Positions 1-14,844 of a stretch of DNA of 52,940 nucleotides are shown piece after piece. Position 1 is the first letter of the stretch. The number at the start of each line of letters is the position of its first letter. The stretch is taken from IMG/VR virus record IMGVR_UViG_3300032086_003216, positions 1 to 52,940 of that record. One strand, 5' to 3'. A program made the translations under genes and the position numbers. Origin of the DNA: a virus. Its lineage: Duplodnaviria > Caudoviricetes. The notes under the pieces were generated by a model, which worked only from the letters and a program-made list of their open reading frames with translations, did not search any database and was not told the origin of the DNA.

Positions 1-57
1 ATAGTGATATTTCAGGTTTTTGATGTGGGTATCCCCAAAATGTGCTATCCGCACCAT
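1..57 (-). CDS. Metallophosphoesterase-family nuclease (SbcD/Mre11/T4 gp47-like), N-terminus only; truncated by the window edge
   Basis: Not in the ORF track. Manual translation from ATG at 57 gives MVRIAHFGDTHIKNLKYHY, matching the calcineurin-like DxH motif I. An AAGGAG Shine-Dalgarno lies upstream. Confidence 0.7.
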   Translation of the reverse strand, partial: MVRIAHFGDTHIKNLKYHY

Positions 58-111
58 AGGCGCACTCCTTCTGTCAGTGTGTCTTATTGTACCAGAGGAT
101 GTTTAGGGTGT

Positions 112-516
112 TTAGGCTTTTATAGACCTACGGCGCATACGTCCAGTCATTTTGTCGAAGCGTGGCCTCATGTTAGCACGTCGGCTATTAATATATTTTT
201 GTACGATGGGTTCCACAAGTATCTCTGTTGAGAAATTTTTTGTTAGGTCTTCACGACCTATCTCATCAAACATTTCTTCAAGATGTTTTTTGATAATATC
301 CTCTGCCCGCAAAATATCCTCCATCGGAATGGCGGCACGCTCTTCTAGTGTCTCGCTTTCAGCAGGTTCCTCAGATTCTGCTTTAACGCAGTTTCTGTAT
401 GTTCTACCAAACATCTTTTTGGTTTTGCGAGTTTCGTGGGTCTTGTAGCCCTTCTGGCAACGTTCGTCAAGTTGCCTCTTCACCATCTCACGGATTTGTT
501 CTCTGGTGATTTTCAT
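112..516 (-). CDS. Class A leader protein with a basic Cys module (putative internal head/cargo protein)
   Basis: Starts MKITREQIREMVKRQLDE, then CQKGYK...YRNCVK, resembling the CWxGY...NCV motif of T4-like phage hypothetical proteins. ATGA overlap with the upstream gene. Confidence 0.75.
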   Translation of the reverse strand: MKITREQIREMVKRQLDERCQKGYKTHETRKTKKMFGRTYRNCVKAESEEPAESETLEERAAIPMEDILRAEDIIKKHLEEMFDEIGREDLTKNFSTEILVEPIVQKYINSRRANMRPRFDKMTGRMRRRSIKA

Positions 517-917
517 ACGTCCTTGATGCCGTAGTATTTCTTTGGTCCTCGACGAGGGTTCTCTGCTTTGCGTCCCATACTCTGGGCGAAAAGGTCAGTT
601 CGCTTTTCAAGGAATTTTGGACGGACAAGAACTTTATCGCCACGCTTGTAAGTGATCGAAGATGTTGATGCAATCGAGGGGTCATTCAGCAAGCGCAAAA
701 CAACAGTCGGGCGTCCATCCACATTACCCATTGCCGTTATTTCACCAACAGCGCCAGCCAAGATACTTCCTATAACATCGACTTCATCACCAATTTCAAA
801 TTCTAATTCTGGCATTGGTTCAAACTCTTTGGTTTGAAGTCCGTACTCTTCCGAGCCAAACTCTTTGAGTAACTCTTCTTGAATAATCTTTCGTAGTTGG
901 GTCTTGGTAATTTTCAT
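513..917 (-). CDS. Class A leader protein with a KOW/SH3-like motif
   Basis: Start moved to ATG 917 (MKITKTQLRKIIQEELLKE), 1 nt after the upstream TAA. FEIGDEVDVIGSILAGAVGEITAM fits a KOW motif. Confidence 0.75.
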   Translation of the reverse strand: MKITKTQLRKIIQEELLKEFGSEEYGLQTKEFEPMPELEFEIGDEVDVIGSILAGAVGEITAMGNVDGRPTVVLRLLNDPSIASTSSITYKRGDKVLVRPKFLEKRTDLFAQSMGRKAENPRRGPKKYYGIKDV

Positions 918-918
918 T

Positions 919-1269
919 TTAGATGTCCGAATCTGGTCCAACCAGTTTGTCTAGTTCAGCACTTGATATAGGTCCTTTGCCGACTGGTCCGTCATAGGAT
1001 GGTCCTTCAACGCCTTTTTGCAGAATAGCATAGAGGTCCGAAGCATAGGCTCTGGCTGCTGCCGAAATCTTCGCTCCGATCTTGGTTGTGCCAATTTCTT
1101 TGTATAGCAGTTCAGCCGTCTTCAATGCTGCTCTTGCGTCTTTATCACTCATCAAAGAGCGACCTGTTCCCAGAGGGCGGTCGTCTTCGGTAGCATACTT
1201 ATCTTCGCTAAGTTCTGCCTCCATCTCTTCTTTGATAATTTGTTGTAGTTGTTGTTTGGTGATCTTCAT
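919..1269 (-). CDS. Class A leader protein, unknown cargo
   Basis: Starts MKITKQQLQQIIKEEMEAELSE; 1-nt gaps to both neighbours. Confidence 0.75.
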   Translation of the reverse strand: MKITKQQLQQIIKEEMEAELSEDKYATEDDRPLGTGRSLMSDKDARAALKTAELLYKEIGTTKIGAKISAAARAYASDLYAILQKGVEGPSYDGPVGKGPISSAELDKLVGPDSDI

Positions 1270-1270
1270 T

Positions 1271-1525
1271 TTAGATATCCATCTTGCTCATATCTATATC
1301 GCCAACGGGCTTACCACTTGGTTTTGTTCCACCATGGCGGTTCTTCATAGCCAAAAGGTCATCCATTATTGCTTTTCCGTCAATGCCAGTTCTTTCTATG
1401 AAGTATTTGGCTTGTTTCATTAACATATCAAAGAAAACTTCCATTTCCATGCTATGTTCTTCGTTGAGTGTCTTTGTGAGTTCTTCTCTGATAACTTTTC
1501 GTAGTTGTTGTTTTGTGATTTTCAT
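1271..1525 (-). CDS. Class A leader protein, unknown cargo
   Basis: Start moved to ATG 1525 (MKITKQQLRKVIREELTKTLNE), with AGGGG upstream. Confidence 0.75.
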   Translation of the reverse strand: MKITKQQLRKVIREELTKTLNEEHSMEMEVFFDMLMKQAKYFIERTGIDGKAIMDDLLAMKNRHGGTKPSGKPVGDIDMSKMDI

Positions 1526-1529
1526 TTTT

Positions 1530-2246
1530 TTATCCCCTTGCAATTACGCTCAATAAATCTTCGGCTCGGGATGCCTGTTTAGCAGAGCGAACATCGTTGG
1601 ATGTTTGTCGGATGTCTATCAATAATTGTTCAAGTTCTTCCATGGCTTCCATAGCAGACATCGCATCCAGTCCTAGTTCTGCGTCAGCCATAGCCTGTAA
1701 ATCCTTGCCAGAGAGGCGGTCGCCCATCTCTTCGTCAAGTGCTTCTCTAATAACTTGTTGAAGTTGTGATTTAGTAATTCTCATTTTATTCTCCAAAGGT
1801 AATTCTGTTTGTGCTTCAGGTTCGCCGACCATTCCAGCGGGCTCTGGTCCTAAGTTCCTAAGGTCTGCAACATATTGCGCAACACCCTTCATAGTGGGGA
1901 GACTTATCTCACTTGGAGAAACATCGTCTTCGGCTCCCGCAAGGGGGTAGACCTGAACATCGTAACGTCCCATCATTCCAGCAGGGTCAATTGTCACTTC
2001 TGTATCCCTATAGTTAGTGAAGACAAGTTCGCCACGACTATAAAAGGCTTCGGCTTCAAAGAAAAGACCCAATTCAGCCATGATGGGCTCTACAAGTTTT
2101 TCCACCATAAGTCCAAGTTCGTGTCTGGTATCGTCGTTTCTGTCTTCAATATAGGCTCGGCGGGCTGCTTCTAATTTAGCAAACTCCATCTCGCCTTGGG
2201 TTTCTTCTTTGATTATTTGAAGAAGTTGCGTCTTTGTAATTTTCAC
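1530..2246 (-). CDS. Class A leader protein with a second, internal leader
   Basis: GTG start, MKITKTQLLQIIKEE. An in-frame MRITKSQLQQVIREALDEE begins at ATG 1784, preceded by GGAG. Confidence 0.75.
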   Translation of the reverse strand: MKITKTQLLQIIKEETQGEMEFAKLEAARRAYIEDRNDDTRHELGLMVEKLVEPIMAELGLFFEAEAFYSRGELVFTNYRDTEVTIDPAGMMGRYDVQVYPLAGAEDDVSPSEISLPTMKGVAQYVADLRNLGPEPAGMVGEPEAQTELPLENKMRITKSQLQQVIREALDEEMGDRLSGKDLQAMADAELGLDAMSAMEAMEELEQLLIDIRQTSNDVRSAKQASRAEDLLSVIARG

Positions 2247-2347
2247 TTACAGGCTCCTTTACATCCCGAACAGGAGCAGCATCCACAGCAGCAGCAACAA
2301 TGATTACTATTGAAAAGATTAACCAATTTGTGAAGCACGAGTTTCAT
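2243..2347 (-). CDS. 34-aa cysteine-rich peptide (metallothionein-like or RiPP-precursor-like)
   Basis: Manual translation MKLVLHKLVNLFNSNHCCCCCGCCSCSGCKGACK. GGAGG SD upstream; its TGA overlaps the GTG of the next gene (GTGA); it fills the gap between neighbours. Confidence 0.7.
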   Translation of the reverse strand: MKLVLHKLVNLFNSNHCCCCCGCCSCSGCKGACK

Positions 2348-2379
2348 TATGATCCCTCCAGGGTTTTCTTAAGTAGTTC

Positions 2380-3183
2380 CTAGAAACCAGCAAGTCTTAT
2401 GATATCAGAAGTTATCGCTAAGACAAAAATACCGAGCACTAGAACCGCACCAATAATATTTAGTACGTTCCTTGTCTTTACTGCCAATTTTTTGCGTCTT
2501 ACGCCCTCTACCGTAGACATCACAATATGTCCGCCGTCCAAAACAGGGATTGGCAGTAGATTGATAACCCCGAGATTGATAGAGAAAAAAGCAATCCAGT
2601 CTATTAAGAAACCCCAGTCGCCCGTTTCGGCACTGCGTTTTCTTGCTTGTTCTGTGAATTCATAGACTGCTACAGGTCCGCCAACCTCTTTGATGCCCAT
2701 AGGTTCTGGTCGTGGCATCGTTGCGGCTTCCCAAATGCTGCTATACATTCTTAGCGACACATTGTGAGCATACCCAGCAGCCTCTATCACCCCAATGCGA
2801 TGAGCCTGTGCCCCCTCAGGAACGTGAACGTCAGGGTATGGCTGTCCCACTAAGAATAAAAAATACAATGGCCAAGGCAACAACAAATTAAATACTGGAC
2901 CCATCACCGCAATAAACGCACGTCTCCACGGACCTGCTGCCCAAAATGATTGTGGATCTTGTTTTCTATTGTGATAGTCATCTTCTCCACGAGGTTTGAT
3001 GTAACCACCAAAAGGCAAGAGTGACAACCGCCACTCAGTTCCCCACATCTTCTTTTTGAGGAGGACTTTGCCAAAGCCTATTGAAAAACTATCGACGGCA
3101 ACGCCCACTGATCGGGCAGCAAGATAGTGCCCCAATTCGTGTATGAAAATTACTAAAACAATTATTCCAAGAAAGGTAAGCAC
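2380..3183 (-). CDS. rseP: Site-2 protease, M50 family intramembrane zinc metalloprotease (RseP-like, apparently PDZ-less)
   Basis: HELGH in TM1, FSIGFG and LSLLPFGGYIK motifs, GPVFN, and NLLPIPVLDGGH. GTG start with AGGAG SD. Confidence 0.9.
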   Translation of the reverse strand: MLTFLGIIVLVIFIHELGHYLAARSVGVAVDSFSIGFGKVLLKKKMWGTEWRLSLLPFGGYIKPRGEDDYHNRKQDPQSFWAAGPWRRAFIAVMGPVFNLLLPWPLYFLFLVGQPYPDVHVPEGAQAHRIGVIEAAGYAHNVSLRMYSSIWEAATMPRPEPMGIKEVGGPVAVYEFTEQARKRSAETGDWGFLIDWIAFFSINLGVINLLPIPVLDGGHIVMSTVEGVRRKKLAVKTRNVLNIIGAVLVLGIFVLAITSDIIRLAGF

Positions 3184-3632
3184 AAAGTTTCTCCTAGAGA
3201 CATTTGGTAGGATTGATATTCATACCTCGGAACTCCGTATCCAGGTATGTCCCACCTCTCTTTGATCCCAGGCGGTAAACGATGTTCTATCGGAGCCCAG
3301 AATTTTATATGATCATATATTCTTTTATTTTCTGCCTTGAGTCTTTTTATCTCTTCGTTTTGAAGTTCTATCTTGTTTTCAAGATTGCTAATTGCGTGGG
3401 TTGCTGCTTTTTCTAGTGTCCTTTCAAGTCCGCTTTCATTGAACAAGAACAACAAGAAGCCTGTATATATTCCACAGACCATTGCAGACAAAACAACAGT
3501 CCATACAACAGCCGAAAAATAGTTAGTCTTTATTTTATTATCAGGTGGGGAGACATCAATAATCTCAGGCTCATAAATAGATTCACGAGCATTGTCTCTC
3601 ATATTTCTATAGAAGTCTCTTTCCCTACTCAT
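3162..3632 (-). CDS. Single-pass membrane protein with a coiled coil
   Basis: Hydrophobic AVVWTVVLSAMVCGIYTGFLLFLF followed by heptad-like ISNLENKIELQNEEIKRLKAENKRI. Confidence 0.7.
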   Translation of the reverse strand: MSRERDFYRNMRDNARESIYEPEIIDVSPPDNKIKTNYFSAVVWTVVLSAMVCGIYTGFLLFLFNESGLERTLEKAATHAISNLENKIELQNEEIKRLKAENKRIYDHIKFWAPIEHRLPPGIKERWDIPGYGVPRYEYQSYQMSLGETLCLPFLE

Positions 3633-3658
3633 AAAGTAAATAGTTTGGGAAGGTTGTT

Positions 3659-4285
3659 TTAGTTCTTACGTTCGCCCTTTTTGCTTCTGCTCGATTGGTT
3701 TTTACAGAACTGCTTCATTGTAAAACCTTTAGGGTTAGAGCATTTATCTTTTCTTTTTTTTCGTTCCGCAGAAGACCACTCTTCTTTGATTCCGCCGCCT
3801 TTTGTTGCCCGCCAGCGGTTGCCTGTTTCTTTGCTTGGTTCCTCAACTTTGAGGGCTGGGTCTCGCTGTAGCCTCTTCCAAATGCTCTCACCAGCAGTTG
3901 TCTGCTTGGAGTCGCTATACAGAGTTCCATACCTATCAACTAGGAAGTTGTAGAGGTCGGTGATATAAAAGCCGCCACCCTTGACTTTGCGGACATTCCC
4001 AATAGCATAAGCATCTTCGTGTGGGTTGGTCGCAACATAAGCAATAGGTCTGTCGTCTTTATCAACCACAAACATTAGTTCGTCTTTGCCGAACTCACCA
4101 CCTGTAAAGAGTGCTATTTGGTGTCCCTTAAAATCACCAAGGTCTTGTCGCTTGGCTTTGCTGGGAGCATGTTCTTTATAAAAGTAATCTAGGCTCTTTT
4201 GTATTTCGCTTTGGTCGGTTGCTATATCAGCAATCTTCTCAACCTCTTTGATATACTTCCGCCACTCTGTTAGTAGTTTTTTCAT
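3659..4285 (-). CDS. Class B leader protein with a GNAT-like domain and a C-terminal basic Cys module
   Basis: Starts MKKLLTEWRKYIKE. LYNFL...LYSDSKQTTAGESIWKRL resembles a divergent phage GNAT pattern. After IKEE comes WS...CSNPKGFTMKQFC. Confidence 0.7.
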   Translation of the reverse strand: MKKLLTEWRKYIKEVEKIADIATDQSEIQKSLDYFYKEHAPSKAKRQDLGDFKGHQIALFTGGEFGKDELMFVVDKDDRPIAYVATNPHEDAYAIGNVRKVKGGGFYITDLYNFLVDRYGTLYSDSKQTTAGESIWKRLQRDPALKVEEPSKETGNRWRATKGGGIKEEWSSAERKKRKDKCSNPKGFTMKQFCKNQSSRSKKGERKN

Positions 4286-4286
4286 T

Positions 4287-4760
4287 CTACAACCCTCTTA
4301 CAATATCTTTGAGATGTAAATAGCCTCTGGCTTCATATTCATCATTTCTTTTGATTGAGTTGTCAATAGTTCCTCGTGTGAATTTTCTGCGGACAACTTG
4401 GTCTTCAAGAAATTGTAGCGGTTCTATGAAATTTTCTATGTCATCCCTTTTAAAAATCATACCGCCGCCTGCTTCTCTCATAAATTTTTGGGCTCCGCTT
4501 AACGCATACACGACATTGTTGATGGCTCTCGGAGAAGTGTTCCCTGAGAGGACTTCTTCAATTGCCTCATCAAATCGTTTAAGTTGACTTACTATTCGGC
4601 GAAGGTCAGTTACCTTCTCCATCTCTTCGTCTCCCAAAGAATCCAACAGGAATATAGCGTGTGAAGGAGATGATACAAATGCTTTGGCAATAGCATCCAT
4701 TTCCCGAGTTATTACAACTTCGTTCAAATACTTCCGCCACTCTGTTAGTAGTTTTTTCAT
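4287..4760 (-). CDS. Class B leader protein, unknown helical cargo
   Basis: Starts MKKLLTEWRKYLNE; ATGA overlap with the upstream gene. Confidence 0.75.
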   Translation of the reverse strand: MKKLLTEWRKYLNEVVITREMDAIAKAFVSSPSHAIFLLDSLGDEEMEKVTDLRRIVSQLKRFDEAIEEVLSGNTSPRAINNVVYALSGAQKFMREAGGGMIFKRDDIENFIEPLQFLEDQVVRRKFTRGTIDNSIKRNDEYEARGYLHLKDIVRGL

Positions 4761-5173
4761 TGTTCCATCACCATTACTGGGTTTCCGCCACTATCTTTGC
4801 CGACAACCTCAAAGCCATATCCTTCATACCAATCTACTAGACTGAAACCTTCTGCTTGGCTTTGTCCCAAGTCGGCTATGAGTATTGTAGTGTAAGCACC
4901 CGCATCAGCGGCTTGGCTCATAAAGTCTTCAACCAATTGGTTTCCAACACCTTGTCCTCTGTTTTCTTCGGGGACAAAAGCATTTTTCATTATAGCAACA
5001 GGTAGTTCAAGGTTTTGTATCACCTCTTCACTAACCCCTTCTTTGTTCGCCCAGTTCATTAGCCGGTCGATATTGTTATGAATAACACCATCAATAGTAG
5101 CACCATCTACATCAATTGATATTTCTTGGGCTTCTTTCAAAAACTTCCGCCACTCTGTTAGGAGTTTTTTCAT
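4757..5173 (-). CDS. Class B leader protein carrying a GNAT N-acetyltransferase
   Basis: Start moved to ATG 5173 (MKKLLTEWRKFLKE, ATGA overlap). Motif A VPEENRGQGVGNQLV and motif B LVDWYEGYGFEVVG. Confidence 0.85.
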   Translation of the reverse strand: MKKLLTEWRKFLKEAQEISIDVDGATIDGVIHNNIDRLMNWANKEGVSEEVIQNLELPVAIMKNAFVPEENRGQGVGNQLVEDFMSQAADAGAYTTILIADLGQSQAEGFSLVDWYEGYGFEVVGKDSGGNPVMVMEQ

Positions 5174-5745
5174 TTGTTTTTTTGTTTCCCCACAATACGC
5201 ACCTGCTTGGGTGAAAATACAGAAATGTTTTTCTCGCCGTCGCCGGTAACATAGAAGGCGTCGTAGCCTTGTGATTTCATCCATTGTTTCATTTGGGGGG
5301 TCTCCATTATATCGTAGTCCATACGCATTATAGAATGGAACGAGCCGCCGTAGGCTTCCATCTCATCATATTCATCGTCTTCATTTTTAATAAGACCTTC
5401 AAAGATTTCGTTATTTACTAACGCATCGTAAAGTTTCTGACCTTCTGGGTTTAGCTGCTCTCTTTCTGGGGGGTAAGCGGCATTTTCATCTGATAGAAGG
5501 TTAGAAGTGTCAAAGGCATTCTGGAAGTCCAGAGCCACTTCGTATATAATCCCGTCTTTTCCAGTAGCGTATAGTTTAGCAAAGTCCTTAGAAGGGGAGA
5601 AGAATAGGGAAGTCTCTGCGGCGGTGTTGCCAAAAGTGTGAAAAAACGTCGTCTCAAAATCATCAAAGTCTTTCGTGGAACCGTGGTACCATACTTCGCT
5701 ACCCTCGGCTAGATACTTCCGCCACTCTGTTAGGAGTTTTTTCAT
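5170..5745 (-). CDS. Class B leader protein carrying an ADP-ribosyltransferase-like domain (polyvalent-protein type)
   Basis: MKKLLTEWRKYLAE, then WYHGS..DFDDF, LFFSPSKDFAKLYA, IYEVALDFQN, GYDAF and SVFSPKQV. Confidence 0.7.
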   Translation of the reverse strand: MKKLLTEWRKYLAEGSEVWYHGSTKDFDDFETTFFHTFGNTAAETSLFFSPSKDFAKLYATGKDGIIYEVALDFQNAFDTSNLLSDENAAYPPEREQLNPEGQKLYDALVNNEIFEGLIKNEDDEYDEMEAYGGSFHSIMRMDYDIMETPQMKQWMKSQGYDAFYVTGDGEKNISVFSPKQVRIVGKQKNK

Positions 5746-5927
5746 TTTTTCTTTTTTGCCTTATCTTTTTCCAACGAATCCATCCCCCTCTTTAGCAGGT
5801 CAACTTGCCCGAGGGGTGCTGTTGTAGTAATGGCATCGACAAACGTTTCAAGCCAGCCCTTTTCTTTTTTCTTTTGCTCCACTACTTGCCGAACAATTTT
5901 TCTTAATTCATTGATTTTTATTTTCAT
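5742..5927 (-). CDS. Small basic protein with a class A-like leader
   Basis: MKIKINELRKIVRQVVE; ATGA overlaps on both sides. Confidence 0.65.
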   Translation of the reverse strand: MKIKINELRKIVRQVVEQKKKEKGWLETFVDAITTTAPLGQVDLLKRGMDSLEKDKAKKKK

Positions 5928-6748
5928 ATTCCTACCGCCTCTGGATATTTTGTTTTAGCGAACGCAATATATTTATCACGCAGTTCCTTAAAAAAGAAGT
6001 CTTTGAGTTCTTCTTCTGTATATTGAACTCTGTATTCCCCAGGAGTTTCTCTCTCGTCTTCGGCGTTCATCTTGTCTCGGCGTCGGCGGAACATATCAAA
6101 GAATTGTTTGAGACGTCTATCCAGTGCTTCCGTGTAGGGTATCTTGTAATACTTTGCTCTTTTGTAAACTTCTTTGGTGTAAGAATCTGTTTCAGATTCC
6201 GAAGCATAATATCCACGGACACCATCAAGGTTGTTATAGTTCCAGTTGATTCCGCCCATAGGGTTGTAAGTGCGAGGGTCAGAAGTTTTCAGCACATCAT
6301 CGGTTTGACCGCCGTGCTGGATCTCGTGGATGGTGACTGATTTGAGTTCGCCAAGATAAGAGTTAAGGTCTTGCTCATTGAAGCCGATATCTAGATAACT
6401 ACTGACTGTCATATAACTATCTCTTGGGTCCTGTGAGTCTCCCATAAAAGCCCCGCCGATTTGGAACTTGTCCCCTGTTTCTTCTGCTAGTTTTTTATCA
6501 ATGTAAAATTTGAACGAAACAGAGTACATCTTTTCGTCAAGTTCTTTTGGTAATGCTTCACCTCTTTCGTATCTTTTGGGTGTTACGACTATCAGGTCCT
6601 TGCGTGAGTTCTGGACATTCTCGCTGGGGATAACCTCGTCAATAATATATTTGACATAAGGTATTACCTTGCGGGTTAGTTCTGTTGTGGCTGCTTCGTA
6701 CCTTCCCTCTTGGAGAAAGCCTCGCCACTGCTCCATAATCAGTTTCAT
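5924..6748 (-). CDS. Class B leader protein with a zincin-like metallopeptidase motif
   Basis: MKLIMEQWRGFLQE; VTIHEIQHGGQ (HExxH) and a downstream YYASESETDSY candidate third-ligand Glu. Confidence 0.65.
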   Translation of the reverse strand: MKLIMEQWRGFLQEGRYEAATTELTRKVIPYVKYIIDEVIPSENVQNSRKDLIVVTPKRYERGEALPKELDEKMYSVSFKFYIDKKLAEETGDKFQIGGAFMGDSQDPRDSYMTVSSYLDIGFNEQDLNSYLGELKSVTIHEIQHGGQTDDVLKTSDPRTYNPMGGINWNYNNLDGVRGYYASESETDSYTKEVYKRAKYYKIPYTEALDRRLKQFFDMFRRRRDKMNAEDERETPGEYRVQYTEEELKDFFFKELRDKYIAFAKTKYPEAVGI

Positions 6749-7245
6749 TACGTTGGGTCCACTGCTCTACTCACATCTATAGTACGTCCGCTATAAGTTC
6801 CTGCAAGCCATCTTTTTAGTATTTGGTTCATATTGAATTCTTCAGAATCAAGTCTCATTTGAGCAAGATTTGAATTATCCTTTCCTACTTCTTCAATAAA
6901 CCATTGCACAAATGCTTCTTCAACATCGTTGTCAACAATAGCTGCGATCTTATCGTCTATCCGAAAAAGTTTTAAAAACTCTTGAGGCTTTGGTGGCTTC
7001 TTAGCAACATATGAATTGAAGAGGAACTTTACCAGAGGTGCTGCACTGACTGAACCAGCAGCATCTTTTGCCCAATCTACAATTGCCTTAGCCCCCTCTT
7101 TTGCCCTTCCCTTAGAACGAATGATTTTCATAAACTCAACCATATCGCCCAAGGTTTGCAGATTTTGACTTTGTATGAATTGTTGCATATCCTCAGTCAG
7201 TACTTCTTTTTGATAATTGCGCCATTCTGTCATTATTTTTTTCAT
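6748..7245 (-). CDS. Class B leader protein, unknown cargo
   Basis: MKKIMTEWRNYQKEVLTE; overlapping junctions with both neighbours. Confidence 0.75.
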   Translation of the reverse strand: MKKIMTEWRNYQKEVLTEDMQQFIQSQNLQTLGDMVEFMKIIRSKGRAKEGAKAIVDWAKDAAGSVSAAPLVKFLFNSYVAKKPPKPQEFLKLFRIDDKIAAIVDNDVEEAFVQWFIEEVGKDNSNLAQMRLDSEEFNMNQILKRWLAGTYSGRTIDVSRAVDPT

Positions 7246-7841
7246 CGTGATTGTACCTTATAAGTTTTTTGCTTACCGCCTGCAAATGTGTCTGTTTTAA
7301 AATCGTCCTTACGCATGACTGTAATTACTTTTATAGTGTCTGGTCCTTTTCGCATATCTAATACTGCGATGACGTTGAGGGCGGGGACTTTGCCTTTGCC
7401 GACCATACGAATATGGAATGGCTCGTCGTTGCCAAGTTCGCCGTTCGCATAGTCCTGAATGATTTTGCCGATGGCTAGTTCAACCGCTTGGATAATTGCT
7501 CGGTTAGAAATTTTCTCATCGTGGCGGAACTGGCGTTCCTTGCTGTGCTTGGTTGCTTCAAGGTCTGTGTCCTTTAAATTAATAATGACGTTGACGCCAC
7601 GAACTTTTGTGCTATATGCTTGTTCGGCGTCAAGGTCAGCCATCTTTTCTTCCATGAGGTGGTCGGCTGGGCGTCCTTGACTTATCCAGTCTTCAACAAC
7701 AAATACTTTTTGGTCTTCCGATAAATTCCAGAAAACCTCTTGGAGTTCTTCGCTCAAACGAGAGGCGTATTGCTTGTAAACCTTTTCGTTTACCTTTTGT
7801 ACTTTGACAAAATTACGCCACTCGGTCATCAACTTTTTCAT
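7242..7841 (-). CDS. Class B leader protein with a possible RelE/BrnT-like RNase domain
   Basis: Start moved to ATG 7841 (MKKLMTEWRNFVK, TAATG overlap). C-terminal ATKHSKERQFRH...IKVITVM pattern. Confidence 0.6.
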   Translation of the reverse strand: MKKLMTEWRNFVKVQKVNEKVYKQYASRLSEELQEVFWNLSEDQKVFVVEDWISQGRPADHLMEEKMADLDAEQAYSTKVRGVNVIINLKDTDLEATKHSKERQFRHDEKISNRAIIQAVELAIGKIIQDYANGELGNDEPFHIRMVGKGKVPALNVIAVLDMRKGPDTIKVITVMRKDDFKTDTFAGGKQKTYKVQSR

Positions 7842-8305
7842 TAGTCGTCCCCGAAGTCGTTTCTTTCCTGCCACTCGTAGGATACGCTGTCTTCTTTGAT
7901 TGGTCCGCCTTTTGCCCAAGTGCGGCAAGAGCGAGCAGAGTGACACTTGAAGTGATGCATCCAGCAGTAGCCAAGCCTACCATCGTCGTCAGAAGTCACG
8001 CCTGGCATACAGTCGTCCATTCGTGGGGAAATATCAAAAGCGGTGCAATTGCCGCAGTTAGACTTTTTGGCAGCCTCTTCGGTCGTGTTCCAATATTCGG
8101 CTATGTCTTTCCAGTAATCACCTGGTTCATCTACATTGAGTGGTCCATACTGGATATGTTCTGCCTTAATGGAGGCGTCACGATTCTTTGTGTTGAGTTC
8201 TAGGTCTTGGGTCGCAGGCGGACAAACAAAATCTTTTGCTGCCTTGATAACAACCTTCATCTCCTCTTGGAGAAATTTTCTCCACTCGGTCATCAGTTGT
8301 TTCAT
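7841..8305 (-). CDS. Class B leader protein with a Cys-rich, HiPIP-like metal-binding domain
   Basis: MKQLMTEWRKFLQEE; CGNCTAF...GYCWMHHFKCHSARSCRTW. Confidence 0.65.
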   Translation of the reverse strand: MKQLMTEWRKFLQEEMKVVIKAAKDFVCPPATQDLELNTKNRDASIKAEHIQYGPLNVDEPGDYWKDIAEYWNTTEEAAKKSNCGNCTAFDISPRMDDCMPGVTSDDDGRLGYCWMHHFKCHSARSCRTWAKGGPIKEDSVSYEWQERNDFGDD

Positions 8306-8701
8306 TTACCACTTCCTACAGGACCAGTAGCGTGCCTTTGTCTTAGGACCTGGATTATCGCAATTGTGGCGGGCACGGAACGACTTACGGCGTTCGGGGT
8401 TAGACTTCTTAATCCTCATATTGGGATCACCAAAGTTTACTTTCTTGACATTACCAGTCTTGGGATCTTTGACATAAACTTTAAATTTCTTTACGTCCCC
8501 ACGCATTGGTTTGTTCAATTGAACCTTGCGTCCTTGATACTCAGCCTCTACAAGTGTGTCGTCCCAAAACTCTACGTCCTCAGCCAAGGTCCCGTCATCA
8601 TAAGATGCATCTTCAATATAAAAATATTCTTCATCTTCAGAGAGAAAATGAGATACTTCCTCTTTTATCAACTGTCGTAAGTATGACTTTGTTATTTTCA
8701 T
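8306..8701 (-). CDS. Class A leader protein with a conserved basic viral domain
   Basis: MKITKSYLRQLIKEE and an acidic linker ending LVE, then a basic domain KKVNFGDPNM...RRKSFRARHNC...ARYWSCRKW that I recognise as widespread in viral hypothetical proteins. Confidence 0.8.
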   Translation of the reverse strand: MKITKSYLRQLIKEEVSHFLSEDEEYFYIEDASYDDGTLAEDVEFWDDTLVEAEYQGRKVQLNKPMRGDVKKFKVYVKDPKTGNVKKVNFGDPNMRIKKSNPERRKSFRARHNCDNPGPKTKARYWSCRKW

Positions 8702-9540
8702 CCTTTTTTACCTGCCTTTGATTTTTTGCCGTAGTTGCCTCGCTCTCCACACGCTGATGGTGTTGGTCGGCACTTCGGATACTTTGCTCGTTTTTCGCCG
8801 CTTTCACGACCGCAGGCACTGCATTTCTTTCTGCCTGTCTTTTTATCTTTGCGGCAGGTGTTGCAATCCACCCATCCGCTTTTACTACCCTTGGCACCTT
8901 TGCGACCAAACCAGTCACGCAGACTTGTTTCAGACGAAGGTTTCTTGGTTAGTTTTCTTTTCTTTTCCTCGATAGGTTCTTCTTCGAGGTTCTCATCTTT
9001 TTTTACAGAGTTGATATATTTTCTGTAAACTGCGGCAGCAGATGCTTTACCCGCTGCCTTGGCTCTTTGTTCCATAGCAACAGCCGCCTGGACTTTATGA
9101 GCGTGTGAACGGCTGGAGTTTCTAATCTTGGATACGCTTTTCTTTGCGTCTGCCTCAGTGGCGAACTTCAGTCCGTGGATTGTACCCTTGGGGTCTTCGT
9201 CGGTGTAAAGGTCGCTGTGTTTTTTTGACTTTGCCTTTTGTCCCTTTTTTCTTGGGATGCGAGGATTAGTTTTTTTTTCAGCCAACTCCGCAATCGCTTC
9301 ACGGATCATATCACGCAAAGGATCTTGTTCGACACCTTCTTTCTTGCTCTTATTACCCCAGTTAGCAGCGCCGACTTTTCGACACTTTACCAAAGCACCA
9401 GAAGCATAAGCGGAAGGCCAAACATCATAGCGTGCCTTAACCTTATGATAACAAGCATCTTTCTTGCCACCGCTCTTCTTTTTCTTCTCGACAAGAGCCT
9501 GCTCTATCATCGTTCGAAGTTGAGACATTGTTATTTTCAT
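8698..9540 (-). CDS. Class A leader protein made of three basic modules
   Basis: MKITMSQLRTMIEQALVE; modules DACYHKVK..WPSAYASGALVKCRK, NPRIPRKKGQ..HSDLYTDEDPKGTIHGL and SLRDWF..GWVDC..YPKCRP, separated by acidic linkers. Confidence 0.8.
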   Translation of the reverse strand: MKITMSQLRTMIEQALVEKKKKSGGKKDACYHKVKARYDVWPSAYASGALVKCRKVGAANWGNKSKKEGVEQDPLRDMIREAIAELAEKKTNPRIPRKKGQKAKSKKHSDLYTDEDPKGTIHGLKFATEADAKKSVSKIRNSSRSHAHKVQAAVAMEQRAKAAGKASAAAVYRKYINSVKKDENLEEEPIEEKKRKLTKKPSSETSLRDWFGRKGAKGSKSGWVDCNTCRKDKKTGRKKCSACGRESGEKRAKYPKCRPTPSACGERGNYGKKSKAGKKG

Positions 9541-9549
9541 TCTGTGCCC

Positions 9550-10497
9550 TCATGCTTGTAAAGCAATCTTGAATAAATAGGCATCAGAATCAATAAAAGG
9601 CGCATCTTCTTTGCGTTGGTCAAAAACTTCTTGTGGCATCTCGCCAATGTCTTTGTAACCAGACGTGTCCATCAGTCGAACTTCTACATCATAAGCCAGC
9701 AAAGCCTTCACAAGTTTCATGGCTTTTTTGTGTGCATCGGCATCCAATCCCAACAGGACTGGTGTATCGTTTTTTACAATCTTTCTGAAGAGTCTGCTGT
9801 CTTCCCGAAGTGTTGAGCCGAGCAGTGGAATACTGTTCTCGCCAGCAACGATTGCGTCAAAGACACCCTCGACCAAGGTGACCTCTCGTTCCCAGTCAAT
9901 CAGCAGTTCGTTAAAGATGATATCTTTGTTGCCTGGTCCGTTGAGATAGGGAGGCCAGACATTAGGGTCATATGTGCGGGACGTAAAAAAGTTACAGTAG
10001 CCTTCTTCGTCAAACGATGGGAGAATAATTCTATTTTTGTATTCGCCAGAAGCGCAGTAGCCGATCTTCCAATAAAGGACGTCTCTTTGCTCAACGGCAC
10101 GTTTACGGAGATAGTTTAGGGGCACTCTTGCAGAGGCAGGATGAGAGCGACCAGTTAGTGTTTGAAACTCACTTGGAAGGTCGATTCGCTGCGGAGAATC
10201 TTCTTCCTTAGCAAACAGGTTATCTAGGTCGCCTAACTCAATATCAGCGTCAAAATCTTTCCATCTATGGATATGACTTACATCGCCCCAACGCCTGACT
10301 AGGCGTCGTAAATTTTTGGTGCGGAAGTCGCACGCCCAACATTTGGCTACGTTCTTGTCAAAGTTGACTGATAGTTTGGGTTTGTGGTGCGAGCAACAGC
10401 GGGACTCGTATAGATACTCCTTACCTTGACGATACGCTCTGCCGAGTATCTCGTCAAGGATTTTCTTTTTCTTCGCTGAGTTAGGGTCGCTAAACAA
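9550..10497 (-). CDS. Phage DNA primase (zinc finger plus TOPRIM)
   Basis: N-terminal CCSHH...CWAC zinc-binding region, YLRKR, RIILP, TOPRIM LVEGVFDAI, LDAD and KDIGE. Confidence 0.9.
   Translation of the reverse strand: MFSDPNSAKKKKILDEILGRAYRQGKEYLYESRCCSHHKPKLSVNFDKNVAKCWACDFRTKNLRRLVRRWGDVSHIHRWKDFDADIELGDLDNLFAKEEDSPQRIDLPSEFQTLTGRSHPASARVPLNYLRKRAVEQRDVLYWKIGYCASGEYKNRIILPSFDEEGYCNFFTSRTYDPNVWPPYLNGPGNKDIIFNELLIDWEREVTLVEGVFDAIVAGENSIPLLGSTLREDSRLFRKIVKNDTPVLLGLDADAHKKAMKLVKALLAYDVEVRLMDTSGYKDIGEMPQEVFDQRKEDAPFIDSDAYLFKIALQA
9574..9580 (-). promoter_or_regulatory. Putative phage late-promoter core CTATTTA upstream of the leader-gene array
   Basis: CCTATTTATT within the primase 3' end, about 34 nt before ATG 9540. 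The same core recurs before several other gene starts. Confidence 0.45.
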
Positions 10498-11103
10498 TCA
10501 CAGCCCGAGTTCTTTGAGTTGTGCGATCGTTGCCGCAACATTGTCAGGGTCGTGCTTGATGGCAATGCCACCGCCCGCTCGGAACTCGTTGACGTACTTA
10601 TCTCGGTCGTCAATCAAAAGTCCTTGCTTGCCGTTCCAAACTCCGTAGGGCTCTTTGCTGTCAGAAAGGTTGACCTTCTCAACTGGGAATCCCAACTCAC
10701 GAGCAACCCAGATTCGCTTACCAACCTTAGAGCCTTCCGCCATCGGAGCCGACAAGATTTCCAACCCTGGGATATCCTTGATGTAATCCCAAAGTTCTTT
10801 GCCGCCACGTTCCCAGCCGAGGTTTGCCCAAAGATCGACGTTGTCTTCAACCAGTCGGTACATAAAGTCTCGGACACGATAGTTCCGAGGCAGGCTGCTT
10901 TCCTGATCAGAGCGAGCAATGTGCCACTTGTTGATTACCACATCCCAGCCGCCAAGTTCTTTGGCTGCCGATCGGGCAAGTTTGTGGTCAGGATGATCAG
11001 GCTCGTGGCGAAGTTCTCGCAGGCGCTTGTTCATATAACTCAGGACACCATCCTCAAAGTTGACGAGGACACCATCCATATCACTAAACACTTGGTATCT
11101 CAT
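10498..11103 (-). CDS. HAD-superfamily 5'(3')-deoxyribonucleotidase-like protein
   Basis: DMDGVLVNF motif I, ILSAP, GKRIWV and LLIDDR. Start moved to ATG 11103, which has a GGAGG SD. Confidence 0.85.
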   Translation of the reverse strand: MRYQVFSDMDGVLVNFEDGVLSYMNKRLRELRHEPDHPDHKLARSAAKELGGWDVVINKWHIARSDQESSLPRNYRVRDFMYRLVEDNVDLWANLGWERGGKELWDYIKDIPGLEILSAPMAEGSKVGKRIWVARELGFPVEKVNLSDSKEPYGVWNGKQGLLIDDRDKYVNEFRAGGGIAIKHDPDNVAATIAQLKELGL

Positions 11104-11125
11104 GGGGACACCTCCCTCCATAAGT

Positions 11126-11153
11126 ATAATACCACAGGTTTTGTTTAGGTCAA
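11126..11153 (-). promoter_or_regulatory. Sigma70-like promoter for the nucleotidase-primase pair
   Basis: TTGACC-N16-TATTAT with TG at the extended -10 position, in an intergenic gap. Confidence 0.55.
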
Positions 11154-11160
11154 GTAATTT

Positions 11161-11760
11161 TTACTTATCTTCTTGTGCGTCGAGATATGCTGCTATAGCC
11201 ATCTCTTGCTTTTTCTTTTTTGATTTGCCCTTAAATTGCGGGGCTTTCGATTTACGGAAGTCTTTGACATAATCGCCTGCTGTAGAATCCTTGTCAAGTT
11301 TTTCTCCCATAATATGATCATACTCAAGGTAATGTTTGACTACGCCAATGTAGTCTGCTATCTTTGTAATCTTGCTCTGAATCCAGGCTGGCATATGATC
11401 GTCATCTTCTAGCATATCAAAAATCTCAGCGGCGTATTCGGCTGTCTTATACATTTGGCGCTTTGCCATATCACCTTCGTGATCTTTTTCTTTATTGTGG
11501 TGATCAACACCCATATCAATTGATTGCATGTGCATGTCACCACAGGCCTCTTCAATTTCTGCTGGTTCTATATCATCGGGCTCAGTCATTTTTGCCACCT
11601 CAGCACGCAAGGAGTTGGCTACCTTGACTGCATCAGATTTAGAGAGATTAGAGATCTGAGAATACAGAGTATTCACTTTCTTGTCCACTTCTGAAGCAGA
11701 CATCTGTTTTTCTATTTCTTCTCTTATTAGAGATGAGATAATTTCTTTCGTAAGAATCAT
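11161..11760 (-). CDS. Class A-like leader protein with two conserved phage modules
   Basis: MILTKEIISSLIREEIE; DHEGDMAKRQ...MPAWIQSKITKIADY module and DYVKDFRKSKAPQFKGKSKKKKQEMAIAAY module. Confidence 0.75.
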   Translation of the reverse strand: MILTKEIISSLIREEIEKQMSASEVDKKVNTLYSQISNLSKSDAVKVANSLRAEVAKMTEPDDIEPAEIEEACGDMHMQSIDMGVDHHNKEKDHEGDMAKRQMYKTAEYAAEIFDMLEDDDHMPAWIQSKITKIADYIGVVKHYLEYDHIMGEKLDKDSTAGDYVKDFRKSKAPQFKGKSKKKKQEMAIAAYLDAQEDK

Positions 11761-11775
11761 ACAATAAATAGATTG

Positions 11776-12351
11776 TCAATCCAATAAAACTATTTTTTCT
11801 GTAAGAAATCCTTTATTATCTTTGTTCCTAAGCAGAAACTCTCCTGCTCGGGCAATAACGACAGCATCAGCACGGTCATCTGTGCCTTTTTTATAGTTCC
11901 TTCCGCCACGAGCCATTTCATATGGAAAGGCTGTTTTTTCTTTTTCGATCACTGCCTCAATAACCATTTTCTTTCTTTGGGGTCCCTTTGTCCCTCGTGG
12001 GAAAGACAATCCGTAAAGGGATCTTGCAGTGTTGACATTTATATAAGTCGGCTGCATCTCAAAGCATTCAAAACATATCCAGGAAACAACACCATTAAAC
12101 TTTGCTAGTTTGATGATTGTGTCAGCCCTTGACTTGCCAGGAAGAAACTTTTTCAAAGCAGTTTCAATAAACACATGCTCAATATCATATTCAGACCGAA
12201 GAGTATATAACTCAGCGCCAATGGTCTCTAGTCTCTCATAGATGTTGTCAATCTTGGAAAGATCAACTCCCTCTGACTTTACTAGCTTTCCATCGTTATC
12301 TATAATCGCTATCCCAACTAGAGTTGTTGAGATATCTAAACCTAATATCAT
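11776..12351 (-). CDS. ruvC: RuvC-like Holliday junction resolvase
   Basis: ILGLDIST..GIAII, VFIE and DRADAVVIA give the acidic residues of the RuvC/RNase H fold. Confidence 0.85.
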   Translation of the reverse strand: MILGLDISTTLVGIAIIDNDGKLVKSEGVDLSKIDNIYERLETIGAELYTLRSEYDIEHVFIETALKKFLPGKSRADTIIKLAKFNGVVSWICFECFEMQPTYINVNTARSLYGLSFPRGTKGPQRKKMVIEAVIEKEKTAFPYEMARGGRNYKKGTDDRADAVVIARAGEFLLRNKDNKGFLTEKIVLLD

Positions 12352-12363
12352 ATAGGGAGTATA

Positions 12364-13716
12364 TCAGAAGTCCATTTTAAGTTTAAATGTAAATGACTCT
12401 GACTCTTTCTTTCTTACAGGATTCGCTAGCTTTGCCACAGCGATCAGGTTTTTCTCATCATCGTAAATTCCAATCTTACTTATGAATACCTGCTTTTCAA
12501 AACCTTCTTCATAGTTGCAGTAAGGGCTTTGAATTGTATTCTTCAAAGGCACCTCTTTTGGCTCTATGTATGATGAGCTATCATAAAAAAATGTTTCTTG
12601 CCAATTGGCATGTGATGAACTAACCCAAGTTGGGTTTTGCGAATTGTTAACTTCTCCTGACCTGGCAGCAGCGAACATTGTAGTCGTAGGTATTTTATTT
12701 GTTCCCCTAAATGACATCTTCCACAAACTTGCCGATGGGTAATAGTTTCTTGGGTCTGTGCCATCATGCCTGTGTCCATGAGCGCCAGACAGATAAGACC
12801 CAAAATAAAGCCAACTTGCAGTATCCTGTTGGGCATCGCCTTGGGCAACTCTGGTTCCAGTGTATGCGTCTCTTGCAAACGGAGCGCCGCCAACAGGGGC
12901 AGATGATGTCAACATTATAAATCCTTGATCGTACAAGACCATTCCCACAACAGTGCCGCTAGCGTTACCCATTGTAGAAACTAGTTCACCATTTTGTCTA
13001 ATATCTTTTGCTTCATCAAGGAGAGACCCTGTATAGTAAAACTTTAAACTAACCGATCCTCTTTCTATTCCCGATCCAAATATCACCGAAGGTATTGATA
13101 AAAGGTTAACCGCACCTGTCACTAGTCCAGTCCCTGTTGAATAACCATCATTAGATGATGTGAAGACATTGTAATCAAAGACTGGGCTGTACCTTCTATA
13201 ATCATTGATTGTATTAGACAAAGCAATCATTCTCTTGCGGCGTCTAAAGTAAATGTCTGTATCTTGTTCTCGGGCCAGACCATCGATCCCTGGCACAAAA
13301 GCATCATGCTTTCTCGGCAATGCGTTAGGAAAAATATACTCTCGCTCAATGCTAGACGTAAGAGGATATTTTCCTTCTAGGAAAGTCCCATAATCTTGCC
13401 TAGCAGACTGAGATAGAGTTGTATTCTTAAAAGTCAGATAGTTGCCATCCTTTACCATAAATGATTGAACGTAATATGTCCAATTATATGGTGTTAGTGG
13501 CGTTCTGTCTCCTTGGTCGTATTGTCCATCAGATGCACTAATTCTATTTACATTAAGTTCATAAAGGCTAATACTGCCTGTTGGTATATTTCCGCCTCTA
13601 AAGCTTTCGTTGTTTAGATAAGCACTTCCGCTATACATCGTAAACTCATAACTTGGATGAGTTTCGAGCGTGTTGAAAAATACGTCATTGATGCCAAACT
13701 TGTGGAGGTACGACAT
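12364..13716 (-). CDS. Virion structural protein (baseplate/tail-collar-like C-terminus)
   Basis: C-terminal ISKIGIYDDEKNLIAVAKLANPVRK..FKLKMDF; located in the tail module. Confidence 0.65.
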   Translation of the reverse strand: MSYLHKFGINDVFFNTLETHPSYEFTMYSGSAYLNNESFRGGNIPTGSISLYELNVNRISASDGQYDQGDRTPLTPYNWTYYVQSFMVKDGNYLTFKNTTLSQSARQDYGTFLEGKYPLTSSIEREYIFPNALPRKHDAFVPGIDGLAREQDTDIYFRRRKRMIALSNTINDYRRYSPVFDYNVFTSSNDGYSTGTGLVTGAVNLLSIPSVIFGSGIERGSVSLKFYYTGSLLDEAKDIRQNGELVSTMGNASGTVVGMVLYDQGFIMLTSSAPVGGAPFARDAYTGTRVAQGDAQQDTASWLYFGSYLSGAHGHRHDGTDPRNYYPSASLWKMSFRGTNKIPTTTMFAAARSGEVNNSQNPTWVSSSHANWQETFFYDSSSYIEPKEVPLKNTIQSPYCNYEEGFEKQVFISKIGIYDDEKNLIAVAKLANPVRKKESESFTFKLKMDF

Positions 13717-13728
13717 TACCCACCTCCG

Positions 13729-14844
13729 TTAGTAATCTAGCCTGACTCTTAGGGTAAACTCGTTTGAAGGTGTTTTCTTGAGTGGTTCGCTAAGCTTAGC
13801 AACTGCCAACAATTCATTATTCGCACTATACAAACCAACGGTTGTTATATAAGAGATTGGCTCATCTGTTCTAGATTCCTTGACCCTTATTTGACTTTGC
13901 GACAAATAAGTTGGGGAACTGCTGTAGTTGAACTCATTTGCATTAGCACGGCAGAAGTATACTGTTGAGTTAAGCTCTGTCGTGTTAGTAAAGTAAATGT
14001 CTTGCAATCTATTACGGAGTGCGTCAGCCGAGCCCGAGATTGAAGAACTAACAAAAAGCTCCTCTACTCCAAGTCCAGCAGGTCCCGAAGAGGCTGTAAC
14101 CATTATGATCTTGCCACCAGTTTCATTATTGACAACAGTGTTATTAACAATGCCGCCACTAGCTGCAACCTTGAAAAGCGAAGAGGTTAAGACAGCAATA
14201 CCTGCCTGGTAGTAAAGTAGTCCAATTGCTTTTTCTCCATGGAACGGGAGAATGGTACTAGTACCAGTTGCGTACAATATATTGTACTCTCCTGCGGGGG
14301 AGTTCGTCTTGAATGTGTTCGATGTGTTGAATTTATCAAAAACACGAGCAGTAACGTTTGTAAACCCTATGCCCTTGCTGCCTGTTGGGTTCAGAGAGAA
14401 GTCCATGCGGAAGGTTCCCTTCTGAATTTCATCTTTGGCCAAAAGTCTTGAGAAGTTGAAAAAGAAGGCTTCCTCCAGCTTAGGGCCATCCGACAAATCG
14501 CCATCTTCGTCAAATCGACGGATGCTACCTGTCTGGTCATGTCCAACTAACACTTGTGCAAGCGTGTTGTACATTTGGAGTTTTTGTCTATTTTGTGTAC
14601 TGAGCGAACTCGAAAGGTCCGAACCAGAAGCATAACCTGCTGTTATGTCAAAAATGTGGTTTGCAGAAGAACTCAGATATGGGTAGTCGTAAACACTTTG
14701 GAACATTCCATGAGAATAGTTTTTGATGTTTAGATCATTATAAGTCCCTGTTGTGATAGTACCAGTTATTGGGATCGCTTCATGAAGCTTTGTTCTAGTA
14801 GATTGTACATCACTTCCCAAAAGTGTTTTGAATGAAGTAGCCAT
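13729..14844 (-). CDS. Virion structural protein, paralogous C-terminus to the adjacent gene
   Basis: C-terminal ITTVGLYSANNELLAVAKLSEPLKK..LRVRLDY. Confidence 0.65.
   Translation of the reverse strand: MATSFKTLLGSDVQSTRTKLHEAIPITGTITTGTYNDLNIKNYSHGMFQSVYDYPYLSSSANHIFDITAGYASGSDLSSSLSTQNRQKLQMYNTLAQVLVGHDQTGSIRRFDEDGDLSDGPKLEEAFFFNFSRLLAKDEIQKGTFRMDFSLNPTGSKGIGFTNVTARVFDKFNTSNTFKTNSPAGEYNILYATGTSTILPFHGEKAIGLLYYQAGIAVLTSSLFKVAASGGIVNNTVVNNETGGKIIMVTASSGPAGLGVEELFVSSSISGSADALRNRLQDIYFTNTTELNSTVYFCRANANEFNYSSSPTYLSQSQIRVKESRTDEPISYITTVGLYSANNELLAVAKLSEPLKKTPSNEFTLRVRLDY

Follow-up and report, generated by a model that had tools for sequence, protein, structure and literature searches.

A coding 31-base repeat at the start of unrelated phage genes: a candidate capsid-targeting leader that may double as a joint for cassette exchange

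Why do four adjacent phage genes with unrelated bodies begin with the same 31 bases? The genes are located on a 52,940-base stretch of DNA (here called the window), which is the entire IMG/VR virus record IMGVR_UViG_3300032086_003216, linear and estimated to be 28% complete. Judging from predicted proteins such as gp25- and gp6-like baseplate wedge proteins, a primase, a RuvC-like resolvase, an endolysin-like domain and two proteins of 3672 and 1960 residues, the window is a fragment of a large uncultured marine T4-like myovirus. An earlier note, made from the sequence alone, had described the common gene start as a leader which also acts as a recombination anchor for the gain, loss or swapping of gene cassettes. 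Here we examined both the DNA repeat and the peptide which it encodes. By analogy with phage T4, the leader most likely serves first of all as a protein tag, i.e. a capsid targeting and cleavage signal, which the earlier note had not considered. The whole reading, a portable leader that serves as a capsid-loading tag and, as DNA, as a joint for cassette exchange, has in our estimate a probability of about 0.6.

The repeat, ATGAAAAAACT[A/C]CTAACAGAGTGGCGGAAGT, matched the window exactly four times, without a mismatch and always on the minus strand (Table 1; genes of the array are numbered w01 to w11). Because the genes of the window are all on the minus strand, the string as written is the gene-sense strand. 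No match was obtained in 100 dinucleotide-preserving shuffles, and a fifth copy was absent from the whole 52,940-base record. DNA identity among the four copies extended over 31-33 bases and then ended. After removal of the first 16 residues or 48 bases similarity among the four bodies was not significant (best blastp E 1.2, best blastn E 0.08). Four further starts, termed class B in the earlier note (6748, 7245, 7841 and 8305), differed from the 31-mer by 15, 6, 8 and 8 mismatches. The description of a repeat with one variable base that opens four adjacent genes, is followed by unrelated sequence and has more distant, diverged copies was thus correct. The peptide is MKKLLTEWRK, which continues as [YF][LI]xE, giving the 14-residue leader MKKLLTEWRK[YF][LI]xE.

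The primase gene of the window was used as an anchor to fetch and align relatives. A related primase was present on 29 IMG/VR contigs (79-97% identity in 27, 43% in two). Across the window and these relatives we counted 102 distinct leader starts of this kind (W-type) and 80 distinct starts of a second kind, MKITKxQLxxIIxEE (I-type or MKITK-type). The W-type leader preceded 48 body clusters, and in 26 of them it was within three mismatches of the 31-mer. Where Pfam domains were found, they began at residues 18-20 of the tagged proteins, i.e. the leader is an add-on. The two kinds can stand before the same body: that of w02 is preceded by an I-type leader in the window and in contig L048, and by one of the W-type in L040 and L036. 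It is virtually certain that the leader is a modular tag on unrelated proteins.

What might such a tag do? The T4 prohead protease gp21 cleaves after L/I-X-E, and the T4 capsid targeting sequence (CTS) comprises residues 1-10 of internal protein IPIII, with residues 4 and 7 serving targeting and residues 8 and 10 processing (PMC9026906). T4 internal proteins are diverse defence proteins in which the CTS alone is conserved (PMC3012670). The W-type leader ended in the same manner. [LI]-x-E with the Glu at residue 14 was present in 82 of 102 W-type leaders, compared to a background of 1.1% per position in the other window proteins. As the W-type search expression constrained residues 1-11 only, the count for residues 12-14 is independent of it; the I-x-E at the matching place of I-type leaders was required by the search expression and is not independent. 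The four window copies end in YIKE, YLNE, FLKE and YLAE, and all fit L/I-x-E. In the T4 record ipII and ipIII begin with MKTYQEFIAE; common to this CTS and the leader are the MK start, hydrophobic or aromatic positions and the final [LI]-x-E.

A candidate protease is encoded in the lineage. A Peptidase_S77 domain, i.e. the gp21 family, was detected in four of five large relatives (E 1e-28 to 4e-33); the one without it has an estimated completeness of 81%. In relative G001 (190,528 bases, rated 100% complete) the protease gene is flanked by those of the portal and a Gp23-family capsid protein. A 128-residue gene of G001 (L066:16814-17200), located between the prohead protease and a scaffold-like gene, begins with MKKSELKNIIKE, which resembles the MKITK-type leader; it may encode a core protein with an N-terminus that the leaders imitate. 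About 18 leader-bearing genes are present in the complete G001, clustered at 179.9-190.5 kb and 0.1-1.7 kb.

The likeness to the T4 system goes beyond the cleavage motif. In T4 the CTS is removed by gp21 and is found on IPI, IPII, IPIII and, as a propeptide, on Alt; there, as here, a short N-terminal peptide ending in L/I-x-E is carried by unrelated, non-essential proteins from loci which are polymorphic among relatives. In both cases the leader is conserved as DNA, with 32 identical bases in T4 ipII and ipIII and 31 in the window copies. T4 Alt is an ADP-ribosyltransferase, and so is one cargo here. Yet the differences are considerable. The present leader has 14 instead of 10 residues and occurs in two interchangeable families. 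The 18 or so tagged genes of G001 and the 48 body clusters of the lineage compare with three T4 internal proteins. Genes here are arranged stop-on-start and lack individual promoters and ribosome sites, whereas in T4 upstream bases, too, are common to ipII and ipIII. Finally, the putative cargo here is enzyme-rich. On this analogy the leader is probably a T4-type capsid targeting and cleavage signal on swappable cargo.

Next we consider the DNA. From the primase to the pair of membrane protein and M50 peptidase, gene content was different in nearly every relative, with primases 79-97% identical. The four repeat genes sit in a hot spot just downstream of w06, which is empty in L034 and occupied by other cassettes in L037, L051/L052, L036 and L053. 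Compared with L033 (primase 97% identical in amino acids), w05 has a replaced body, the exchanged part reaching from leader base +30 to one base short of the following ATG; L033 lacks w07 and w08, the joint being in ATGAAAA, and w09 follows directly after the HExxH gene w06. The most instructive relative is L021, where w11 directly follows the w07 homologue. The match to w07 (5930 to 5713, 91.3%) and that to w11 (4286 to 3800, 97.7%; M50 gene 86.4%) overlap by 34 bases exactly on the leader, and the window has 1426 extra bases (w08, w09 and w10) bounded by two leader copies. The L021 leader combines the CTC of the window's post-w07 leader with the downstream bases of w11, and this places a crossover within leader bases 13-33. 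It is the only case in which the pattern of variants puts a crossover inside the repeat.

A junction scan which demanded two flanks, each of at least 90 bases and at least 85% identity, returned seven junctions. Five were in arrays (four distinct ones, as two contigs are near-duplicates) and all of these were on a W-type leader, with overlaps of 27-43 bases and 373, 485, 825 and 1426 extra bases; the remaining two were 154-base indels upstream of the primase. Strict and diverged leaders could not be told apart by how many upstream contexts a cassette has, since new neighbours are acquired by resident genes, too. From these comparisons it is very likely that leader-bounded recombination produced the array indels. 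As for the proposed recombination anchor, relatives do differ by whole cassettes and all four distinct array indels join on the leader; the DNA identity may be either a cause or a result of the recombination.

Metagenomes were examined for further arrangements. A 3.7-kb stretch was covered with at least 92% of sampled words in 20 runs from nine studies; eight of these runs are possible sources of the record. Logan contigs from four runs of four other studies were compared with the window cassettes. Among the contig pieces listed, each cassette with its leader ends had 0 differences in at least three of the four runs; this included w10 (three of four), which was on no other IMG/VR contig. Logan contigs end inside every leader copy, which is expected because 31-base words are used, and the order of the cassettes in the window is therefore provisional. 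Two contigs carry different arrangements: 4753>5921 in run X9 joins w06 to w10 (shorter side 55 bases), and 5166>5921 in run X17 joins w06 to w09 (shorter side 43 bases), as in L033. In X9, depths of 16.7 for w10, 8.8 for w08 and 9.0 for the joint would fit two co-existing arrangements, contig depth being a poor measure. Contig joints of which one side was no longer than 31 bases (3651>4255, 4285>5133, 4760>7935, 6747>9560 and others) were discarded, such a side being the repeat itself. Two joints that go back along the window fit the gene orders of L021 and L036 as well as excised mini-circles, such as belong to the PeSL shuffling discussed below. The earlier note had named two outcomes that would speak against its proposal, identical cassette content in relatives and an assembly artefact; neither was found.

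The claim that synonymous positions of the leader are conserved was confirmed beyond codon usage. CGG accounts for 2.3% of Arg codons and CTA for 16% of Leu codons of the window, and the chance that a random synonymous encoding of 11 codons equals the consensus is about 1e-5. The rarity of CGG and this low probability rule out codon bias as the source of the DNA identity. A fully degenerate MKKLLTEWRK pattern retrieved 28 IMG/VR loci, and together with the window this yielded 38 distinct copies in 20 records, i.e. leader DNA is present on 19 records besides the window. All 38 strict leaders have ACA, 37 have AAG at codon 10 and 31 have CGG. Between records, synonymous-codon identity was 0.81 (4382/5416) for leader codons 2-10, 0.49 for codons 12-21 and 0.50 for diverged W-type leaders; for orthologous bodies it was 0.47-0.75. 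In the same 44 record pairs it was 0.79 (960/1216) for the leader vs 0.64 (7605/11970) for the primase, the leader being higher in 30. Within records the leader reached 0.86. I-type leaders had 0.52 vs 0.43, i.e. no conservation at the DNA level. A four-gamete test found all four combinations in five of 15 site pairs of the leader; recurrent mutation could also produce them. Two leader copies start with GTG instead of ATG (L036:16505 and in L053, 8222 from the primase start); there the upstream gene ends in TAG and the remaining leader DNA is unchanged. Both are intact genes, and the idea that they are orphan leader copies was dismissed.

How would these properties fit together? We propose that the 31 bases constitute the 5' end of a portable leader, 14 codons long, which is placed before many unrelated small proteins. 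The peptide would form an amphipathic helix which acts like the T4 CTS and takes its cargo into the prohead, where the phage's gp21-type protease would remove it after Glu14; ADP-ribosyltransferase, GNAT-like, NUDIX and other enzymes would then be delivered with the DNA. The joints would arise by homologous crossover between leaders. In about half of the cases the leader's ATGA provides the stop of the upstream gene (this overlap is present at 52 of 96 W-type starts), and after a crossover from leader to leader stop, start and tag would all be whole again. In this manner cassettes could be deleted, inserted or swapped as units, both inside one genome and between relatives that infect the same cell. 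The same crossovers would homogenise the leaders of mobile cassettes, keeping their DNA nearly identical, and leaders of long-resident genes would drift. Gene conversion, which the earlier note had offered as an alternative, would be one facet of this recombination instead of a competing explanation. We lean slightly to the view that recombination, and not a separate nucleotide function, maintains the DNA identity. More tentatively, and with a probability that we place somewhat below even, the leader may be a dual-purpose module: a capsid-loading peptide removed by the protease and, at the same time, a recombinase-free DNA joint that carries the start and, with ATGA, the upstream stop. This would permit an integron-like, self-homogenising exchange of effectors and let polyvalent giant proteins form and fall apart.

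Several observations weigh against this proposal. On the peptide side, 20 of the 102 W-type leaders lack [LI]-x-E at residues 12-14, and the similarity to the T4 CTS is one of pattern, as sequence homology to MKTYQEFIAE was not detected. Head genes and the gp21-type protease lie outside the window and were seen in relatives only, one of five being without a match, and the array is situated directly behind the primase. TATAAATA, the T4 late-promoter motif, had five matches in the window vs 3.4 expected and none in the arrays, which is uninformative on timing. On the DNA side, the lineage-wide synonymous excess of the leader is real but moderate (0.79 vs 0.64), and the best-conserved body comes to 0.75. 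Young copies may be overrepresented, as leaders were selected by an identical peptide. Variation among MKITK-type arrays is as great as among W-type arrays, without conservation of DNA; hence DNA identity is not needed for cassette turnover. Because every cassette has a leader, homology crosses a leader at any boundary, and a joint located there is by itself no proof of the crossover site; any mechanism that leaves the genes whole should produce it. A comparison of mobile cassettes with backbone similarity had two usable strict pairs, one being more alike than the backbone (+0.06) and one less (-0.056); the higher identity of w11 (97.7%) than of w07 (91.3%) and the M50 gene (86.4%) in L021 is anecdotal. 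Finally, the X9 and X17 joints have just seven, ambiguous bases in common (ATGAAAA).

Could the nucleotide sequence itself be functional, in reinitiation at ATGA or as a site for a translational regulator or a nuclease on the mRNA, with recombination being incidental? W-type starts were within -4 to +2 of the previous stop in 88 of 96 cases vs 25 of 282 other genes. This leaves no space for a ribosome-binding site, and these genes must depend on coupling. Furthermore, the A-rich first 11 bases are nearly invariant, diverged leaders included, and the rare CGG is kept in 31 of 38 strict leaders. Yet w03, w04 and w06 are equally coupled and drift at synonymous positions (0.50; 6-15 mismatches), a DNA constraint is absent from MKITK-type leaders, Rfam families had no match in window positions 1-12500, and regulatory cassettes were not in excess (promoter-like 28 vs 18.7 +/- 4.9, terminator-like 13 vs 12.2). 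A function of this kind as the explanation for the repeat is unlikely.

Distinctly unlikely, too, is a tag for a purpose other than the capsid, be it targeting to the membrane or nucleoid, recognition by the M50 peptidase, or a signal for chaperones or degradation. Such a role would suit the location of the array among replication genes instead of head genes and the presence of the M50 peptidase and the membrane protein at the array end in every relative that reaches it. M50 enzymes cut inside membranes, however, and a hydrophobic span is missing from the leader. W-type and I-type leaders alike finish with [LI]-x-E at residue 14, which is the specificity of the gp21 family encoded by these phages; processed T4 head proteins have similar short N-termini (gp24, MAKINELLRE; gp67, MEGLIE; gp21 with LIE at residue 9), and a gene in the head module of G001 starts with a leader-like peptide.

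It is very improbable that the four copies are a recent tandem duplication of one gene, as the earlier note had allowed, or an assembly artefact that stitched strains together at the repeat: the copies are adjacent and nearly identical, many contigs of the lineage end inside arrays and Logan contigs break at each copy, but the unrelated bodies contradict and rule out a whole-gene duplication, the cassettes and the 3.7-kb stretch recur in the metagenomes described above, and leader DNA is on 19 other IMG/VR records.

With the leader read as a capsid-loading tag and DNA joint, related systems may be compared. In the hyperplastic regions of T4-type phages, modules are shuffled via PeSLs, each an intergenic promoter with a stem-loop (Arbiol et al., 2010, PMC2839356; also PMC4122927). 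Short repeats flank small non-essential genes there as well, and recombination explains insertions, deletions and replacements between close relatives; T4-type recombination requires only small homology patches of less than 50 bp (PMC2839356, citing Singer et al., 1982). Indels and replacements here are likewise bounded by the repeat (the four distinct array indels, L021 and L033). Unlike a PeSL, the repeat is coding and has no intergenic space around it, and the promoter- and terminator-like counts given above show no excess of PeSL-like cassettes in the window. In the giant phages phiKZ, 201phi2-1 and SPN3US a diverged gp21 homologue processes many head-internal proteins, cutting behind the Glu of a short motif (PMC9026906); the motif is S/A-X-E, and in the available part of that source these propeptides are not described as a near-identical DNA repeat or a recombination joint.

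Integrons offer a parallel: there, too, unrelated single-gene cassettes without promoters stand in an array, with a recurring recombination sequence between them. In our case, however, the repeat is within coding sequence and would act via general homologous recombination. An integrase or site-specific recombinase was not found among the 43 open reading frames (ORFs) of the window; no search was aimed at an attC-like structure. The analogy to repeat-and-spacer architecture, which the earlier note had drawn with whole genes as spacers, did not hold. Unlike the repeats of CRISPR-like arrays, those here are coding ORF starts without an Rfam match, and they are irregularly spaced (475, 413 and 572 bases). 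Repoila and co-workers are said to have discussed, in 1994, a conserved leader in recombination. In the limited literature collection that was searched, we found no instance of the CTS idea being applied to arrays of marine or uncultured T4-like phages.

Table 1. Features of the array region and its surroundings in the window.
Feature	Position	Strand	Description
Leader repeat copy 1	4255..4285	-	CTA variant; opens the 208-residue gene; 0 mismatches
Leader repeat copy 2	4730..4760	-	CTA variant; opens the 157-residue gene; its ATGA is the stop for the upstream gene
Leader repeat copy 3	5143..5173	-	CTC variant; opens the 138-residue GNAT-like gene
Leader repeat copy 4	5715..5745	-	CTC variant; opens the 191-residue ART-PolyVal gene
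Cassette w11	3659..4285	-	208 residues; core (1-162) with GNAT-like fold as a lead only; basic Cys-containing tail of ~47 residues
Cassette w10	4287..4760	-	157 residues; no family found
Cassette w09	4757..5173	-	138 residues, from leader ATG at 5173; weak GNAT acetyltransferase matches, under Pfam's cut-off
Cassette w08	5170..5745	-	191 residues; ART-PolyVal ADP-ribosyltransferase, PF18760, E 6.3e-15, above cut-off; domain from residue 18
w07	5742..5927	-	61 residues; second leader type (MKIKINELRKIV...)
w06	5924..6748	-	274 residues; HExxH motif; diverged W-type leader, 15 mismatches; in most relatives
w05	6748..7245	-	W-type leader, diverged DNA; body swapped for an unrelated one in L033
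w04	7242..7841	-	W-type leader, diverged DNA
w03	7841..8305	-	W-type leader, diverged DNA
w02	8306..8701	-	MKITK-type leader
w01	8698..9540	-	MKITK-type leader; basic Cys motifs in common with cyanophage proteins
DNA primase	9550..10497	-	conserved anchor
Membrane protein (small)	3162..3632	-	closes the W-type array together with the M50 peptidase
M50 (site-2-protease family) peptidase	2380..3183	-	PF02163, E 3.9e-57
Second array	112..2246	-	five MKITK-type leader genes; varies among relatives

The cargo was surveyed with Pfam, using 47 cassette representatives and the giant proteins of relatives. ART-PolyVal, GNAT, NUDIX, 2H-phosphoesterase-like, transglutaminase-like and weak ParB_N matches were obtained, and most representatives had no family. 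The core of w11 occurs alone in L021 (162 residues, 97.7% DNA identity), and its tail is a separate leader-tagged gene in L036. At the position of the array L041 (10958-16564), L046 (12890-18469) and L053 encode proteins of 1655-1868 residues (1655 in L053), whose internal domains align with cassettes that stand alone elsewhere, beginning at residue 14-16 of the cassette. By these alignments, giant proteins and single cassettes appear to be related by fusion and fission at the leader boundary. In having ART-PolyVal domains, and in the relatives' long proteins at the same place, the arrays resemble the polyvalent proteins described by Iyer et al. (2017, PMC5512222). They differ in that each domain in the window is a leader-tagged gene of its own, i.e. 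the disaggregated form; many-domain polypeptides are limited to relatives. A gene of the second array (1530-2246) contains a second MKITK-type leader near residue 157, besides that at its start, and would seem to have arisen from two fused cassettes. The basic Cys motifs of w01 were found in 371 phage records, mostly of T4-like cyanophages, inside larger proteins beside structural genes; one such cyanophage protein was labelled 'structural protein' by the depositor, the one hint that tagged proteins may be located in the head. Proteins with basic Cys segments (w01 and the w11 tail) may be DNA-binding internal proteins.

Some features of the lineage deserve mention. Cultured phages are only distantly related: the nearest is Microcystis phage Mel-JY01, with 32% identity on the gp6-like protein, followed by Flavobacterium phages and T4-like cyanophages. 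The M50 peptidase and the membrane protein (2380-3632) separate the W-type from the MKITK-type array and are kept in every relative contig which reaches there. For 22 of the 29 relatives the contig stops less than 10 kb downstream of where the primase begins, in about 16 cases inside arrays and in six inside the primase, and the window and G001 likewise terminate within an MKITK-type array. Assemblies of the lineage seem to break at these repeat-rich, variable arrays. At 49068-52896 the window has a sugar-nucleotide cluster with genes for a GDP-mannose 4,6-dehydratase, an epimerase, a cupin, a short-chain dehydrogenase and a xylose-isomerase-type TIM-barrel protein. Two neighbouring genes at 12364-14844 (450 and 371 residues, no family match) have C-terminal ends that are clearly alike and probably encode paralogous structural proteins.

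If the proposal is true, the leader marks proteins which a widespread group of marine phages injects together with its DNA, and the arrays would amount to a catalogue of candidate effectors for counter-defence or host takeover, most of them without a known family. The capsid-targeting principle of T4 would be extended to dozens of cargo families under two interchangeable tags, and single-domain cassettes would be linked to the polyvalent proteins. The arrays would also account for the tendency of assemblies of these phages to break there. A coding repeat that doubles as a crossover site would keep the effector arsenal exchangeable between co-infecting phages.

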